A stretch of DNA of 64,000 nt from an uncultured Gammaproteobacteria bacterium (GTDB lineage Bacteria; Pseudomonadota; Gammaproteobacteria; JABDGN01), in assembly GCA_963975985.1 (NCBI GenBank), contig CAXBIY010000010.1, positions 6,476 through 70,475 of the forward strand, given 5' to 3'. The translations under genes were made by a program, and so were the position numbers. Of the stretch, positions 981 to 6,506 are shown piece by piece. The notes under the pieces were generated by a model, which saw only the letters and a program-made list of their open reading frames with translations, searched no databases and was not told the DNA's origin. How positions within the stretch are numbered: position 1 is the first letter of the stretch; every line of letters begins with the position of its first letter.

Positions 981-1619
981 TTAAGCTAGCGCTAATAAGG
1001 ATGTCACCTCTAGCGACTTTGCTTGCCAGACATTTTCATCAGGATGCTCCTCCTGCCATTCGGCAATCACTTCGTCACGCAACTCCAGCAATTCAATCAA
1101 TTGTGGCTGAAACAATTGTATCATTGCGGTTACCCACTGACTGGTCACATCATATTGCACATGTTCGATATGAAAATTATCTAAATGCGGCACAATGTCT
1201 TTCGCATGAAACCATTTTCCTTGCACAACCCAATGGTTCAGCGTAAACAGCGCCGTGGGATAGCCATATTCATTCATCGCTATAGCAGCAATATGACATA
1301 AATTATCTTTACTAGGGTCATCAATATGCTTTTTCGAAACGACTATAGGCGCAAGTTCGGAAAATGAATGCGTACGTAAAAAAACATGAAAATGCCCATG
1401 TTCAACAAGTCTTTCAGAATCATGTGAGATATGGGTATGATAAAAATATTGACTATGGTGGATCTTATCGATGACATCACCCTTCGGATAATGCTGCCAC
1501 TCAAACAACGTTTCATTTTGTGGTAACACTGCAGCTACCATATTAGAATCTTTAGCAACAATAGTTTGATAACATTGTTGAATATTTTCTGCAGCCTGTT
1601 GCTGCTTAGTACTTAACAT
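981..1619 (-). CDS. Conserved hypothetical His-rich (cupin-like?) protein
   Basis: Long ORF with a His cluster (HHSQYFYHTHISHDSERLVEHGHFHVF). The ATG at 1619 is preferred over the TTG at 1640. It lies 57 nt downstream of, and co-oriented with, the Cys-rich peptide gene. Confidence 0.6.
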   Translation of the reverse strand: MLSTKQQQAAENIQQCYQTIVAKDSNMVAAVLPQNETLFEWQHYPKGDVIDKIHHSQYFYHTHISHDSERLVEHGHFHVFLRTHSFSELAPIVVSKKHIDDPSKDNLCHIAAIAMNEYGYPTALFTLNHWVVQGKWFHAKDIVPHLDNFHIEHVQYDVTSQWVTAMIQLFQPQLIELLELRDEVIAEWQEEHPDENVWQAKSLEVTSLLALA

Positions 1620-1640
1620 ATGGGATGTTGATAGAACCAA

Positions 1641-1660
1641 GGGATATTAAGCAATATCCC
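1641..1660 (-). terminator. Intra-operon hairpin (possible leaky terminator or attenuator) between the Cys-rich peptide gene and the His-rich protein gene
   Basis: Perfect 8-bp stem GGGATATT-AAGC-AATATCCC. On the minus-strand RNA it is followed by a moderately U-rich stretch (UUGGUUCUAUC). Confidence 0.3.
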
Positions 1661-1676
1661 TTGACGCTCCAACACA

Positions 1677-1940
1677 TTATTCGTCGCCAGCACAACCGCT
1701 GCAACCACTACAACCGCCACAGCAACCGCTGCAACCACTGCAACCACTGCAACCACTGCAACCACTGCAACTACCCGCGCAACAACCACCGGCACAGCAA
1801 CCACTGCATGCAGCAACCGCTTGAGTTTTCACTGTTGGTGTCGCATTAGTTTTACCGCTCACTACATGATTTGCCATCGCAAGATTACAAGCCATTACAG
1901 CCGCAACACTTGTTGCTAACATAACTTTCTTACTCATCAT
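1677..1940 (-). CDS. Exported Cys-rich (CSG)n peptide, 87 aa; metallothionein-like or CxxC-repeat protein
   Basis: A strong SD (AAGGAG) lies 4 nt before the ATG. A Sec-type signal peptide (MMSKKVMLATSVAAVMACNLAMA) is followed by a 45-residue C-terminal tract with 15 Cys in overlapping C-x-x-C spacing. Confidence 0.6.
   Translation of the reverse strand: MMSKKVMLATSVAAVMACNLAMANHVVSGKTNATPTVKTQAVAACSGCCAGGCCAGSCSGCSGCSGCSGCSGCCGGCSGCSGCAGDE
1692..1775. repeat. 9-bp tandem repeat GCAACC(A/G)CT encoding the (SGC)n tract
   Basis: There are four perfect consecutive copies at 1731..1766, flanked by degenerate copies. The reverse complement AGTGGTTGC encodes Ser-Gly-Cys. Confidence 0.9.
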
Positions 1941-2050: not shown

Positions 2051-2944
2051 TTAGTGCTTGTGATGCGTTTTATCATCTTGACATTTTTCACCCTGTTCGA
2101 CCTGAATGGTCGCATGATGAATATGATATTCCTTTTCCAACGCCAAATGAACGTTATGCAATTCTTGGTCAGACAGACCTTGTGGCGCAATCAAATGAAC
2201 GGTTAAAGCCACCTCTTGTGTACTCAAGCCCCAAATGTGTAAGTGATGCATATCACTGACACCTGAGATATTTTTCAAATAGTTTTCAACAGCTTGGCGA
2301 TCAACATTATGTGGCACCGCATCAAGAATTAAATCCGTCGCATTGCGTAACAAACTCCAGGTACCCCATAAAATCATCGCCGCGATGATTAAACCCACCA
2401 ACGGATCTAACCATGTTTTCTGAGTCCACAACACTAATGCTCCCGTGATGACGACCCCTAATGAAATGACAGCGTCATAGGCTAGATGTAAAAAGGCACC
2501 TTTCACATTTAAATCATCATGTTGGCCTTTCATGAATAACAAGGCTGTGCCGCCGTTAATAGCGATACCTACCGCGGCAACAATCATGACAGTGGCTTCA
2601 TGCACAGCGACAGGATGTAATAGACGGTGAATCGATTCAACAACAATGAGCACTGTTGCAGCAACCAAGATAATGGCATTCATCAACGCCGCTAAAATAG
2701 TCGTACGTTTAAAACCATAGCTGTATTTCTGTGTGGCCTGACGTTTGAGCAATAGCATCGCGCCCCATGACATGGCTAAACCTAATACGTCACCTAAGTT
2801 ATGACCGGCATCGGCCAATAAACTTGCTGAATTAGCGTGCAGGGCATAAAACGCTTCAATAATAACGAAAGCTAAGTTTAAACCAACAGCTAAGCCATAA
2901 GCGAAATTGAATTGGTCGGCATGATGATGGTGATGATGCCCCAT
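2051..2944 (-). CDS. czcD: Cation diffusion facilitator (CDF) family Zn/Cd/Co efflux transporter
   Basis: Six TM helices with CDF motifs (SLLADAGHNLGDV, HLAYDAVISLGV). It has a natural N-terminal His6 (MGHHHHHHAD) and a His-rich C-terminus. Confidence 0.9.
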   Translation of the reverse strand: MGHHHHHHADQFNFAYGLAVGLNLAFVIIEAFYALHANSASLLADAGHNLGDVLGLAMSWGAMLLLKRQATQKYSYGFKRTTILAALMNAIILVAATVLIVVESIHRLLHPVAVHEATVMIVAAVGIAINGGTALLFMKGQHDDLNVKGAFLHLAYDAVISLGVVITGALVLWTQKTWLDPLVGLIIAAMILWGTWSLLRNATDLILDAVPHNVDRQAVENYLKNISGVSDMHHLHIWGLSTQEVALTVHLIAPQGLSDQELHNVHLALEKEYHIHHATIQVEQGEKCQDDKTHHKH

Positions 2945-3519
2945 TAGCTAAGCTCCGCGTGTCGAAAGCAATCTACCGCATGGTCATTGACCATCCCTAC
3001 CGCTTGCATGAAGGCATAACATATCGTTGATCCCACAAATGTAAACCCGCGTTTTTTTAAATCTTTTGCCATTGCGTTTGAAATAGCCGTTGTCGCTGGC
3101 GCGTCTTCTGACTGCTTGTAATCATTTTGTTGTGGCTCGCCATCCACAAACTGCCAAATGTAATCATTAAAACTACCAAATTTTTCTTGCACCTTCAAAA
3201 ATGCTTGTGCGTTTTTTCTCGCACCGAATATTTTCAAACGATTGCGGATGAATGCCGGATTATGCAGCATACTTTCCAATGTTCGGTCACTAAATTGTGC
3301 GACTTTTTCAGGGTCAAAATTGGCGAAATGTTCACGATAAGCTTCACGTTTTTTCAGCACAGTAATCCAACTCAAACCAGCTTGCGCACCTTCCAAAATC
3401 AAGAATTCAAACAAAACATTATCATCGTGTACAGGCACGCCCCATTCTGTATCGTGGTAGTCCTGATAAAGGGGTAAATCGGAAACCCAACTACATCGTT
3501 TTTTTTCTACATGTTGCAT
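2944..3519 (-). CDS. tag: DNA-3-methyladenine glycosylase I
   Basis: Strong similarity to Tag (DYHDTEWGVPVHDD, LILEGAQAGLSWITVLKKR). The ATG at 3519 is preferred. The stop overlaps the czcD start (TAATG). Confidence 0.9.
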   Translation of the reverse strand: MQHVEKKRCSWVSDLPLYQDYHDTEWGVPVHDDNVLFEFLILEGAQAGLSWITVLKKREAYREHFANFDPEKVAQFSDRTLESMLHNPAFIRNRLKIFGARKNAQAFLKVQEKFGSFNDYIWQFVDGEPQQNDYKQSEDAPATTAISNAMAKDLKKRGFTFVGSTICYAFMQAVGMVNDHAVDCFRHAELS

Positions 3520-3595
3520 TCTACATCCCAAGGGTTAGTCTTGATTTCAGTCAGGCATTATCATACCATAGCGATAACAAATTAAGGAATGACTC

Positions 3596-4390
3596 ATGCG
3601 CCGTATTATTATGTTACTCACAAGCTTAGTGATCGCAAGTTCAGCCATGGCTGCTGAAAAAGCGACACCCTTTGACGGCTTTTATGTGGGCGCCAGTGGT
3701 GGTGTTAACATCACACAATTTGATAACTTAGGTTACAGCACAACAGGTAATCGATTTGTCACAACAGGCACCGCGCACACGCCAACATCAGCTTCTGCTC
3801 ATAATGAGAAAAGCTTTACTAACACCGGCGGTGTCGGGCTAATTGATTTGGGTATCGGCCAAACATTCGATTGGTTTTATTTAGGCGCTGAACTTTATAC
3901 AAGCTTTGGCAACAGGACAACCGAATCCGTTAGTGCAAGCGCGACAGCTGAAGGTATTCACGCCCAGGGAACAGGCACCGCAGCACTCAATAGTTTTAAT
4001 TACGGTCTCGATTTTAAACCCGGTGTTGTTATCGGAAAAAACACATTAGCGTACTTACGCATCGGTGCAGCTTTCGCGAATTACACATTGAGTGCCGCCA
4101 GCACTAGCAGTAATGCGGCAACCGGCCAAACCTATATATCAACATCAGGTTCGCATTCAAACACCGTATTAGGCTGGCGAATTGGTCTCGGCGTTGAAGA
4201 AATGCTCACAGCTCATATCGGCATCAATTTTGACTATATATACACAATGTATAATGGTAACAATGCCACCACGTTTGTCACCACCAATGTTAATACGGAA
4301 GGGACCAACACCCAAAATGAAGTGGCAGGTAATACATCTCTACGTTTTCAAGACCAACAAGTGTTATTAGGCATTAATTATCATTTTTAA
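3596..4390 (+). CDS. Outer-membrane beta-barrel protein (porin/OmpA-like barrel family)
   Basis: Signal peptide (MRRIIMLLTSLVIASSAMA), alternating amphipathic strands, and a C-terminal LLGINYHF with a terminal Phe. Confidence 0.75.
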   Translation: MRRIIMLLTSLVIASSAMAAEKATPFDGFYVGASGGVNITQFDNLGYSTTGNRFVTTGTAHTPTSASAHNEKSFTNTGGVGLIDLGIGQTFDWFYLGAELYTSFGNRTTESVSASATAEGIHAQGTGTAALNSFNYGLDFKPGVVIGKNTLAYLRIGAAFANYTLSAASTSSNAATGQTYISTSGSHSNTVLGWRIGLGVEEMLTAHIGINFDYIYTMYNGNNATTFVTTNVNTEGTNTQNEVAGNTSLRFQDQQVLLGINYHF

Positions 4391-4442: not shown

Positions 4443-4874
4443 TTGAGCACAACCAATGGTGTAAAGCTTAATTCCACGGGTTCAGCATCAATTAATAATG
4501 TCATGTTTGGTTTTGATCTGAAACCCGGTTACGCAATCACCGATCATATCTTAGTCTATCTACGCGGTGGTCTAGGCTTTGGCTCAATGAAATTATTTGC
4601 TGACAATGATATTGCCGGTCACAACTTACCTAGTTATAGTGATACACAAAATGTCATGACCTACCGGTTGGGCGTCGGTGCTGAGTATAAATTCACTCAA
4701 CATTTCAGCGTTCACGTTGACTATATCATTAACTTCTTTAGTCAAAGCAATTACAGCATCGAAGGTGCCGGTGTCAATATTCCTACTTTACCAAGCGGAA
4801 ATATAACGTCTAACTCTATTTTTGCTAACCCACAATCACAGTCTGTATTAGCGGGTGTAAGCTACTACTTCTAA
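4443..4874 (+). pseudogene. 5'-truncated paralog of the preceding OMP (C-terminal half only, no signal peptide)
   Basis: It aligns with the C-terminal half of 3596..4390 (FGFDLKPGYAI.. vs YGLDFKPGVVI..; ends VSYYF). Only 52 nt separate it from the preceding gene, and there is no ATG or signal sequence. Confidence 0.6.
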
Positions 4875-5090: not shown

Positions 5091-6506
5091 TTAAAATTTA
5101 CTTAGCAATTTAACAATATGTTTAGCACGCTGGCTAAATAGCTTTGGAGCGTAATAGGTGTTCACCACACGTCGGTTAATTTGTGCAAGTGTGGGGTAAG
5201 CATGAATGGTCGCTGAAATTTTATCAATCCCGAGATTAGCTTGCATGGCTAAAGCGATTTCGGCAATCAACTCACCCGCATGTAACCCTAAAATACTAGC
5301 ACCTAATATTTTACCTTTATAGATGACTAGCTTTACCATCCCTTCAGGCGCGATTTCGGCTAGCGCGCGGTCGACATCTTTAAAGGGGAAACGTAACACT
5401 TGGGCTTTTAAATTCCATTGTTTCGTTTGCGCTTCCGTCACACCTACCATCGCAAATTCAGGGTCAGTGAAAACAACAGCTGGAATAACTTTATGATCCG
5501 CTTTTTTAGGAAATTTGAATATCGCATTGCTAATGACAATACCGGCTTCGTACTCAGCCATATGAGTAAACTTGTATGGATTATCGATGACATCACCCAC
5601 CGCATAGATTTTCTTATTGGTAGTTTGGCATTTAGCGTTGGCTTTAACACCCCGCGGTGAATATTCAACTTTGGCTGCTTCTAAATTCAAATCATCAACA
5701 TTGGCTTTGCGGCCGGCAGCAATCATCAACCGTTCGCCGTGAATGGTAATATCGCCACCGGTTTTAGTTTCACAATAAAAAACAATATCGTCTTGCTGCT
5801 CAACCTTATTTATTTTGCTAACGAAATGAAAATTAATACCTTCATTTATCAGGTGTTGCTGTAGTAAGTTTGCCACCTCTTCATCTGCCATTGGCATAAT
5901 ACGATCAACAATATCGATCACTGACACTTTGCAGCCGAACCGATTAAATGCTTGTGCCATTTCCAACCCAATCACACCCGCGCCTAAAATTAACAAATGC
6001 TTAGGCAGCTGTTGTTGCTGAAAAAGGGTTTCGTTAGTTAAATAATCAATGCTATCTAGGCCTGGAATAGGTGGTGCACTGGGTCGCGAGCCGGTTGCTA
6101 GCACAAAACGTTTTGCTGTTAATTGCTCGCCATTTAATTCAATCGTTTTTTTGTTGATAAACTTCGCTTCACCAAATAACACTTCACAACCATAACCACG
6201 GAAACGTTCTGGGTCATCATGCGGTTGAATCTGATCAATCACTGATTGCACATGTTGATTAATTTTGGCTAAATCAATTTTGGGTTCGTGCGCGGTTAAA
6301 CCATACTTATCGGCGTGTCGCATTTCATGTGCGATAGTCGCGGCTTTAATTAAGGTTTTACTGGGCACGCAACCAAAATGCAGACAGTCACCACCGAGTT
6401 TTTCTTGCTTTTCGATTAGGGCCGTTTTTAAACCCAGTTGTGATGCAACACTGGCAACTGTTAAGCCACCGGCTCCGCCACCGATAATAATCAGGTCATA
6501 TTTCAT
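5091..6506 (-). CDS. FAD-dependent pyridine nucleotide-disulfide oxidoreductase (dihydrolipoyl dehydrogenase / mercuric-reductase-like)
   Basis: It has GGGAGG FAD fingerprints and a redox-active CLHFGCVPSK disulfide motif. The pairing with a downstream DedA/TVP38 gene is a known association. Confidence 0.8.
   Translation of the reverse strand: MKYDLIIIGGGAGGLTVASVASQLGLKTALIEKQEKLGGDCLHFGCVPSKTLIKAATIAHEMRHADKYGLTAHEPKIDLAKINQHVQSVIDQIQPHDDPERFRGYGCEVLFGEAKFINKKTIELNGEQLTAKRFVLATGSRPSAPPIPGLDSIDYLTNETLFQQQQLPKHLLILGAGVIGLEMAQAFNRFGCKVSVIDIVDRIMPMADEEVANLLQQHLINEGINFHFVSKINKVEQQDDIVFYCETKTGGDITIHGERLMIAAGRKANVDDLNLEAAKVEYSPRGVKANAKCQTTNKKIYAVGDVIDNPYKFTHMAEYEAGIVISNAIFKFPKKADHKVIPAVVFTDPEFAMVGVTEAQTKQWNLKAQVLRFPFKDVDRALAEIAPEGMVKLVIYKGKILGASILGLHAGELIAEIALAMQANLGIDKISATIHAYPTLAQINRRVVNTYYAPKLFSQRAKHIVKLLSKF

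Follow-up and report, generated by a model that had tools for sequence, protein, structure and literature searches.

A poly-cysteine peptide with a predicted Sec signal peptide is encoded directly upstream of DUF6969 in a conserved two-gene module

Introduction

Why would a bacterium encode a peptide in which a third of the tail residues are cysteines, and why directly in front of a histidine-rich protein? The question arose from contig CAXBIY010000010.1 of an uncultured Gammaproteobacteria bacterium (assembly GCA_963975985.1), of which a stretch of 64,000 nucleotides was analysed and is called the window below. A sequence-only reading had proposed that the peptide is either a periplasmic metallothionein-like buffer or thiol-redox peptide, linked to metal handling through an adjacent exporter of the cation diffusion facilitator (CDF) family, or the precursor of a peptide that is made by the ribosome and modified after its translation (RiPP). 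Here it was found that the exported poly-Cys peptide and the downstream protein, a member of the family DUF6969, constitute a conserved two-gene module without an earlier description. What the DUF6969 protein might do to the peptide is answered below more tentatively.

Conservation of the gene pair

DNA upstream of the DUF6969 gene was obtained for ten relatives at 45–58% identity (L082, L085, L086, L087, L088, L090, L169, L170, L171 and L172). A metagenome scan contributed L089 and L090 as gamma-type additions among the matches listed, the rest of which were mostly of the alphaproteobacterial type. In all 11 Legionellales-type loci, including the window, a small open reading frame (ORF) of 64–96 aa with a signal peptide and a Cys-rich tail was located directly upstream of the DUF6969 gene and in the same orientation. 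The co-occurrence across genomes that the sequence-only reading had asked for was thereby observed in these 11 loci. The name 'Legionellales bacterium' comes from the annotation of a cluster mate of one relative, and proteins of the window were also contained in Tara data. The bacterium is thus probably a marine, Legionellales-like member of the Gammaproteobacteria.

The genes around the pair differed among the loci and included a transposase, DUF155, a ferritin, a YHS-domain gene, a catalase and transporters of the major facilitator superfamily. The tag gene and the czcD-type exporter with a natural His6 N-terminus, which had been noted upstream on the same strand, were both present in the window (Table 1). 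The suggested link between the peptide and this exporter did not hold, as a CDF gene was found beside the pair in none of the 10 related loci, whose flanks were mutually unrelated. Because the CDF exporter accompanied the pair only in the window, it is not a part of the module, and the CDF/tag neighbourhood was rejected as its functional context.

The 11 peptides had a common N-terminus, M-x-K-K-hhh-x-G-A-A-A-hh-A-S-S-h-A-x-A/G, followed by a pro-region that often contained an A-x-A-N-x-x-P-T-like motif. The cores were hypervariable, with (CSG)n in the window and CGCCGCCGCCGGCGG, CCAAATG repeats, CGGC-K-A-K repeats and CGG, CC or CxGxC types elsewhere. All of them contained 8–15 Cys, and an acidic or Gly/Ser tail was frequent. 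Within the close pairs L086/L169 and L082/L090 the positions of the cysteines were kept. Two of the poly-Cys genes (L171:514-729 and L172:641-928) had been skipped by automatic gene calling, so the family is probably under-annotated in public data.

In Legionellales bacterium UBA7366 (L003:3299-3946), the place of the poly-Cys peptide directly upstream of DUF6969 was occupied by an exported protein of 216 aa. It showed (K)MMDAHPCMPE(E/K)AKG repeats together with CHPC, CMPC and CIPE motifs. A composition so rich in Cys, His and Met is typically seen in Cu(I)-binding proteins.

The poly-Cys peptide

The last 45 residues of the peptide consisted of 15 Cys, 14 Gly, 9 Ser, 5 Ala, 1 Asp and 1 Glu. 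They contained nine overlapping CxxC motifs and three CC motifs, in agreement with the chained CxxC arrangement described earlier; the runner-up 45-aa stretch among all ORFs of the window had 9 Cys. The precursor could be divided into a signal peptide of ∼22 aa, a pro-region of ∼21 aa with the A-x-A-N-x-x-P-T-type motif and a 43-aa core with the 15 Cys. The 87-aa ORF and its strong Shine–Dalgarno (SD) site were confirmed, the latter as AAGGAG at 1944-1949. The likelier start is the second ATG at 1937 (86 aa, beginning with MSKK), because it is separated from AAGGAG by 6 nt and because an M-x-K-K start occurs in every homologue. The Cys-encoding frame is judged to be the true coding frame, because it has an SD site, a start codon and a signal peptide and is conserved in relatives with diverged DNA.

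As read from the sequence, the N-terminus comprised a KK n-region, a hydrophobic core of ∼12 residues (mean Kyte–Doolittle value of ∼2) and A-M-A before the predicted cleavage site. The elements of the proposed classical Sec signal peptide were thus present, in an arrangement common to the 11 homologues, and the peptide is very probably exported through Sec. A lipobox-like A-V-M-A-C (V14-M15-A16-C17 of the 86-aa form) was observed in the signal region, at 1890-1901 of the window. A Cys at the same position was also found in L085 (LLAC) and L090 (LFAC), and a Ser in the other eight homologues. Cleavage by signal peptidase I after A-M-A appears more likely than lipidation.

The core is encoded by a tandem DNA repeat (1693-1808) with a period of 9, 8.4 copies and 82% matches. 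Its copy number could change by slippage. The sole other assembly of the locus, the independent metagenome contig L081, was identical over 2807 bp (100%), the repeat included.

Of the database searches suggested for the two products, that with the downstream protein led to DUF6969 (PF22308), whereas the peptide gave no significant homologue or family. In Pfam and NCBIfam it had no match at E up to 1, save the sub-threshold TIGR03601. A sequence search returned chance low-complexity matches only (E >0.5, for example FeoB-associated Cys-rich proteins), which were uninformative. The empty Pfam, NCBIfam and literature searches agree with the earlier statement that no family with this Sec-exported (CSG)n design has been described.

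The DUF6969 protein

The co-oriented 212-aa protein with its dense His cluster (HHSQYFYHTH...EHGHFHVF) was found as described. When translated from a TTG inside the hairpin that precedes it, the protein has 219 aa, and residues 15–216 of this ORF matched PF22308 with an E value of 1.1e-62 and 211.7 bits (cut-off 27; profile positions 2–199 of 201). Precomputed PF22308 annotation was also present on all 19 close homologues. NCBIfam had no model for the protein, and a literature search for 'DUF6969' found no paper; an association with exported poly-Cys proteins was mentioned in none of the texts searched. DUF6969 is the sole family membership that holds, and it is a family without an assigned function or structure.

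The AlphaFold2 model, made from the alignment of the 19 homologues, was confident, with a mean predicted local distance difference test score of 88.8 and a predicted template modelling (TM) score of 0.87. Comparison of the model with 350,542 PDB chains by Foldseek gave nothing better than E 1.7 and a TM score of 0.21. With the profile of the 19 homologues no PDB sequence was matched, although E values up to 10 were allowed. Within these two comparisons, the predicted fold is apparently new. A cupin, which the pattern HxH...E...H might bring to mind, was rejected in view of the missing PDB match in the Foldseek and profile searches and of the missing cupin match in Pfam.

By HMMER, 972 clusters at 50% identity were obtained at E up to 1e-3, nearly all of them single-domain proteins of 200–290 aa. 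Over 153 members, the residues H43, P45, D51, H61, H63, E73, G75, H76, H78, H109, N128, W130, R181 and D182 were 92–100% conserved; there was no conserved Cys. In the model, H61/H63, E73/H76/H78 and H109 were placed at alternating positions on three predicted β-strands, and the presence of a His/carboxylate metal site on one face of the sheet, mono- or dinuclear in look, is strongly suggested.

The protein is very probably cytoplasmic, because it lacks a signal peptide and because its fusions follow the order DUF6969, coiled coil, transmembrane segment and SH3. Rare fusions of 625–633 aa (P0076 and P0149) consisted of DUF6969, a long coiled coil, one transmembrane segment and a periplasmic SH3_3 domain. 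Another one (P0135, 306 aa) had a hydrophobic N-terminal segment, DUF6969 and DUF2007, annotated as 'putative signal transducing protein'. SH3_3 and DUF2007 were the only fusion partners seen, and they are informative on topology, not on chemistry. Their domain composition suggests that some DUF6969 members are membrane-tethered or involved in signalling.

PADLOC had no match for the peptide or for DUF6969. In PHROGs DUF6969 had none either, and the peptide weakly matched a family whose function is unknown (E 0.007). By these results the module is not one of the known defence or phage elements.

Stem-loop, promoter and translation signals

The hairpin between the two genes, described earlier as a perfect 8-bp hairpin at 1641-1660, was indeed present but larger, with a perfect stem of 11 bp (1638-1663) and a loop of 4 nt. 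The local fold had a ΔG of –23.4 kcal/mol (z –2.5). Without a U-tract it does not qualify as a canonical intrinsic terminator; a function in attenuation or in stabilising the mRNA 3′-end is possible. Stem-loops with ΔG values of –13 to –27 kcal/mol, some with U-tracts, were found in spacers of 51–191 nt in 8/10 related loci. In the two exceptions, L082 and L090, only 2–5 nt separated the genes. In the alphaproteobacterial loci with a co-oriented small peptide, terminator hairpins with U-tracts were located in the same position (4/4 checked). No riboswitch or known RNA was found in the leader of the peptide gene or in the spacer by an Rfam scan.

Each of the 11 peptide genes was preceded by –35/–10-like boxes of its own and a strong SD site. 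In the window no SD-like sequence was found before the DUF6969 ATG at 1619. Such a layout would fit an abundant structural product and a scarce partner made by read-through. An abundant substrate and a scarce catalyst would fit as well, because of the intergenic stem-loop and because AAGGAG precedes the peptide gene and no SD site precedes DUF6969.

The promoter at 2014-2043 of the window is assigned with low confidence. It was not listed in a consensus promoter scan, which gave another weak candidate at 2076-2048. The peptide promoters of L082 and L090, with TTGACA...GCGTAAATA, resembled it. Across the 11 peptide-gene promoters no conserved operator was found. In L082/L090, a perfect inverted repeat CATTC-N3-GAATG was observed between –35 and –10, ∼60–30 nt before the peptide start. 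It may be an operator restricted to these two loci; it was not seen in the window or the other loci.

Cys-rich genes near DUF6969 in Alphaproteobacteria

Most DUF6969 genes were alphaproteobacterial (Rhodospirillales, Thalassospiraceae, Sneathiella, Terasakiella, Kiloniellales and Hyphomicrobiales); more than 589 genome loci were matched. Cultured carriers include Thalassospira lucentensis, T. profundimaris, Terasakiella brassicae and Aestuariispira insulae. Among the loci with enough upstream sequence, low-complexity ORFs with at least 6 Cys in 24 residues were counted as Cys-rich. One was present in 54 of the 127 alphaproteobacterial loci and, with a looser threshold, in 46/80. Within 2 kb upstream of DUF6969 these ORFs had a density of 0.23 per kb, compared with ∼0.03 per kb downstream, and none was found in 110 kb of sequence 2.5–4 kb upstream.

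Two types could be distinguished. The first were small exported peptides of the kind (CNPCNPCAAKK)n, for example MLKKTVTAIGVAALAGA...IIELAQCKPCNPCAAKKGCNPCNPCAAKK..., and the second were periplasmic proteins of 260–655 aa in which (CNPC...AAKK)n was present beside a cytochrome P460 domain (PF16694, E 9e-7) or a SoxA/TsdA-type cytochrome c domain (PF21342, E 4e-6). A C-V-[IV]-P-R-L motif was often located between the repeat blocks of the cytochrome fusions. Long repeat regions of (CNPCNPCAAKK)n or (CGACGAC)n, in which as many as 95 Cys were counted, were observed in L008:2182-3318, L066:2513-3487, L001, L004, L043, L052, L060 and others. There was no Pfam or NCBIfam model for the alphaproteobacterial Cys repeats, and the literature search gave no paper on a periplasmic CNPC cysteine motif or on Cys-rich repeats with cytochrome P460.

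The recurrent neighbours were genes of the FGE-sulfatase family (FGE, formylglycine-generating enzyme; 29/80), DUF2336/SpbR (21), TRAP transporters (20) and class I cytochrome c (12/80). The FGE-sulfatase protein, with a signal peptide and a PF03781 match of E 3e-44 (L052:1320-2198, L022:3025-3894, L024:2031-2900 and others), adjoined Cys-repeat genes. The C-x-P of the repeats (CNP, CMP and CHP) resembled the first half of C-x-P-x-R, the motif of formylglycine-generating enzymes. There are hints in these sequences of a second, periplasmic modification in the alphaproteobacterial loci. Homologues of FGE, P460, SoxA-like and DUF2336 proteins were not found in the window by tblastn.

Comparison with known Cys-rich peptides

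Bufferin precursors have Sec signal peptides, and their cysteines are modified before export by a cytoplasmic multinuclear iron enzyme, which enables copper binding in the periplasm; a modified motif of this type is also found on some large proteins (PMC11626156; PMC12452194). The module is reminiscent of bufferins and oxazolins (BufA/BufB/BufC) in that a Sec signal peptide takes the place of the leader, Cys is the key residue and the product is predicted to be periplasmic. In both cases the precursor gene is directly upstream of that for a cytoplasmic non-haem metal protein, the metal site of DUF6969 being a predicted one.

In contrast to bufferin loci, the window had DUF6969, CDF, tag and a MacB-like permease as neighbours of the peptide and no DUF692 (the family of oxidative enzymes that depend on multinuclear non-haem iron, MNIO) or DUF2063, and neither DUF692 nor DUF2063 was present among the called genes of the related loci. 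In Pfam and NCBIfam the peptide matched none of the DUF2282, BUF_6/12Cys and EGKCG/oxazolin families. Bufferins are folded small proteins with 4–12 spaced Cys, whereas the core of the module appears to be an unstructured low-complexity run with 8–15 Cys. The MNIOs are TIM barrels, whereas DUF6969 (∼210 aa) is predicted to be rich in β-strands and has no detectable structural relative. The module appears bufferin-like in outline; of the bufferin criteria tested, its sequence shares the Sec signal peptide alone.

The known bacterial metallothioneins (SmtA/BmtA and MymT) reside in the cytosol, with a fold like that of a zinc finger. The example of the copper storage protein Csp1, a four-helix bundle exported through Tat, shows that Cys-lined copper stores can be exported. 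Like these proteins, the peptide is of low molecular weight and rich in Cys (15/45 residues), and binding of soft metals would be plausible by analogy. It differs from them in its predicted export through Sec, its low complexity, its dedicated partner gene and the missing match to metallothionein families in Pfam. A literature search for 'periplasmic metallothionein' found no paper. Membership of the peptide in the SmtA-type metallothioneins or in the TIGR03601 bacteriocins was rejected, since no family match was above the cut-off.

Heterocycloanthracin precursors are Ser/Gly-rich, low-complexity sequences of repeated Cys-Xaa-Xaa, often missed by gene callers (PMC2674419). The peptide shares with heterocycloanthracin, sonorensin and microcin B17 the Cys-Xaa-Xaa repeats, the richness in Ser and Gly and a precursor that is easily missed. 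Linear azole peptides have a leader, a YcaO/cyclodehydratase–dehydrogenase and dedicated export, whereas the module has a Sec signal peptide and no such adjacent genes.

Proposed role of DUF6969 and its alternatives

We tentatively favour, with considerable doubt, the reading that DUF6969 is a metal-dependent cytoplasmic protein that acts on the precursor, the product being a periplasmic thiol or metal ligand, according to the logic of bufferins and with unrelated parts. The peptide gene, with its own promoter and strong ribosome-binding site, would give the precursor of Sec signal peptide, pro-region and Cys/Gly/Ser/Ala core, and DUF6969, behind the stem-loop and with a weak ribosome-binding site, would be made in small amounts. 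In the cytoplasm DUF6969 would recognise the precursor, probably via the conserved pro-region or the first Cys, and would alter its cysteines chemically, or keep them protected, prior to export through Sec. Signal peptidase would then free the periplasmic peptide, whose sulfur ligands might bind Cu, Zn or Cd or buffer thiol-reactive stress.

From the invariant His, Glu and Asp residues, the cytoplasmic location and the weak ribosome-binding site we tentatively infer that DUF6969 is a peptide-modifying enzyme. A catalytic role is argued for by the asymmetry of expression, the invariant metal-site residues, the conserved pro-region and the bufferin precedent. Cys would be the likely target, because no other residue is shared by all cores. 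Both a modification of cysteine by DUF6969 and a handling of metals by the product are speculative. Of the RiPP-like layout proposed by the sequence-only reading, the arrangement of precursor, hairpin and downstream gene was found again in the relatives (11/11 adjacent and co-oriented, stem-loop in 8/10), and the role of the downstream protein as an enzyme stays with the argument given above.

Several observations weigh against this proposal. The variability of the cores is extreme; enzyme substrates do not usually vary so much, except where a part other than the core is recognised. The pair was not accompanied by a protease, an exporter, an immunity gene or a gene of the RiPP recognition element type, and DUF6969 resembled no known enzyme in the PDB profile and Foldseek searches. 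The metal context was weak and inconsistent, with the CDF exporter in the window, a ferritin and a YHS-domain gene in L086 and a ferritin in L169. Unmodified poly-Cys would probably be oxidised by periplasmic DsbA, which argues for a modification without proving it. In addition, about half of the alphaproteobacterial loci had no Cys-rich gene within 4 kb and showed synteny with DUF2336/SpbR and TRAP genes. Strong as the association of poly-Cys genes with DUF6969 is, adjacency is thus not obligatory, and since the loci without a Cys-rich gene are in conserved synteny, the role of DUF6969 may be more general.

The peptide might instead be an unmodified metallothionein-like or thiol-buffering peptide of the periplasm, with DUF6969 as a cytoplasmic accessory and not an enzyme, for example a holdase by which the precursor is kept reduced, free of metal and competent for export, or a His-rich guard that shields the cytosol from it. 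This is somewhat unlikely, though it explains the conservation of the gene pair equally well. DUF6969 has many invariant His and no similarity to an enzyme, it could bind the precursor at the conserved signal peptide and pro-region, and a CDF exporter, a ferritin or a YHS-domain gene was found near some members. A stoichiometric chaperone would however be expected at the level of its client, whereas DUF6969 follows a stem-loop and lacks an SD site. That six His and three acidic residues are strictly invariant is more suggestive of a catalytic metal centre than of a binding surface, and free poly-thiols are unlikely to remain reduced in a periplasm with DsbA. The fusion of alphaproteobacterial Cys repeats to cytochrome P460 and SoxA/TsdA-type domains, together with the nearby class I cytochrome c (12/80) and FGE-sulfatase (29/80) genes, would suit a periplasmic sulfur or redox carrier, on which Cys persulfide, polysulfide, thiosulfonate or nitroso groups are held as on the GGCGG of SoxY and served by haem proteins, with DUF6969 preparing or recycling it. 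Several gamma-type cores end in GCGGCGG-like sequences. This carrier is nevertheless unlikely, as P460, SoxA-like, FGE and DUF2336 genes were absent from the window and none was called beside the pair in the related gamma-type loci. Furthermore, the likeness to SoxY is one short low-complexity string, and DUF6969 would be cytoplasmic while the chemistry would be periplasmic.

An antimicrobial RiPP of the thiazole/oxazole type, secreted and matured by DUF6969 as a new enzyme, would place the peptide with the linear azole peptides, heterocycloanthracin and microcin B17. The Cys-Xaa-Xaa core with Ser and Gly is indeed the heterocycloanthracin design (PMC2674419), and TIGR03601 was weakly matched (E 0.16). 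The score of 12.6 bits was far under the 35-bit cut-off, and among the five scanned genes around the peptide there was no YcaO/cyclodehydratase, dehydrogenase, immunity gene or dedicated exporter. The peptide has a Sec signal peptide where a leader would be expected, and alphaproteobacterial repeats are found inside large cytochrome proteins, where a toxin would be out of place; this assignment is quite improbable. It is very improbable that the two genes are functionally unrelated neighbours or that a tandem DNA repeat has given rise to a poly-Cys ORF without function. The 9-bp repeat that encodes the core and the lack of a significant sequence homologue would be expected in that case, but the adjacency in 11/11 loci at 45–58% identity within unrelated flanks, the conserved signal peptide and Cys positions (L086/L169 and L082/L090), the strong SD site, the peptide gene's own promoter-like boxes and the positional enrichment across 158 further loci all speak against it.

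With the description of bufferins in 2024 it emerged that a major route to periplasmic metal homeostasis, long overlooked, is by Cys peptides that are modified in the cytoplasm and exported through Sec. The module shares this logic but no part with them, and its precursor family was unrecognised and sometimes skipped by gene callers. If DUF6969 modifies cysteine, it would represent a new enzyme fold with a new peptide class, and a function would be given to a Pfam domain of ∼1000 clusters at 50% identity. The poly-Cys repeats on cytochrome P460 and SoxA-like proteins of marine Alphaproteobacteria could then be explained as well. It is possible but doubtful that DUF6969 founds a new class of metal-dependent peptide or protein modification with a new fold, by which runs of Cys are converted into oxidation-resistant sulfur or heterocycle ligands. 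In that case the substrates would be Sec-exported peptides and N-terminal repeats of periplasmic cytochromes, and in marine Alpha- and Gammaproteobacteria the ∼1000 clusters would amount to a widespread system by which metals or reactive species are handled in the periplasm. Even if DUF6969 is merely accessory, the periplasm would have a metal or redox buffer of a new kind in a dedicated poly-thiol peptide exported through Sec.

Features of the locus and other genes of the window

The features of the locus are collected in Table 1. On the minus strand the order of transcription is tag, CDF exporter, peptide ORF, stem-loop and DUF6969. The whole window was free of tRNA and tmRNA genes and of Rfam families that reach the gathering threshold.

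Table 1. Positions of the poly-Cys/DUF6969 genes and adjoining features in the window
Feature	Position	Strand	Remarks
tag	2944-3531	minus	TIGR00624, E 2e-70
CDF (ZitB/CzcD-like) metal exporter	2051-2944	minus	TIGR01297, E 7e-66; N-terminus MGHHHHHH
Spacer between CDF and peptide genes			110 nt; holds candidate promoter and Shine–Dalgarno site
Candidate sigma-70-type promoter of the peptide gene	2014-2043	minus	TTGACT, 18-nt spacer, TAAATA; read from sequence
Shine–Dalgarno site of the peptide gene	1944-1949	minus	AAGGAG; 6 nt from ATG at 1937
Poly-Cys peptide gene	1677-1940	minus	87 aa from first ATG, 86 aa from 1937
Tandem DNA repeat encoding the (CSG)n core	1693-1808	minus	Imperfect, 9 bp / 39 bp
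Stem-loop in the peptide gene/DUF6969 gene spacer	1638-1663	minus	Perfect, 11 bp
DUF6969 gene	981-1619	minus	PF22308; 212 aa from ATG at 1619
MacB-type permease gene	57-977	plus	Convergent to DUF6969

Two adjoining ORFs on the plus strand (3596-4390 and 4443-4874) had beta-barrel-like aromatic C-termini (...INYHF and ...VSYYF) and belonged to no Pfam or NCBIfam family. The second one had a TTG start and no signal peptide. They may be tandem paralogues of an outer-membrane protein, of which one has a truncated sequence or a wrongly assigned start.

The minus strand also encodes, at 5091-6506 and some 3 kb away from the peptide, a pyridine-nucleotide disulfide oxidoreductase that depends on FAD. 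It was PRK06370/MerA/RclA-like with the active site CLHFGCVPSK, and every match was under the equivalog cut-offs. A tie to thiol, metal or chlorine stress is possible.

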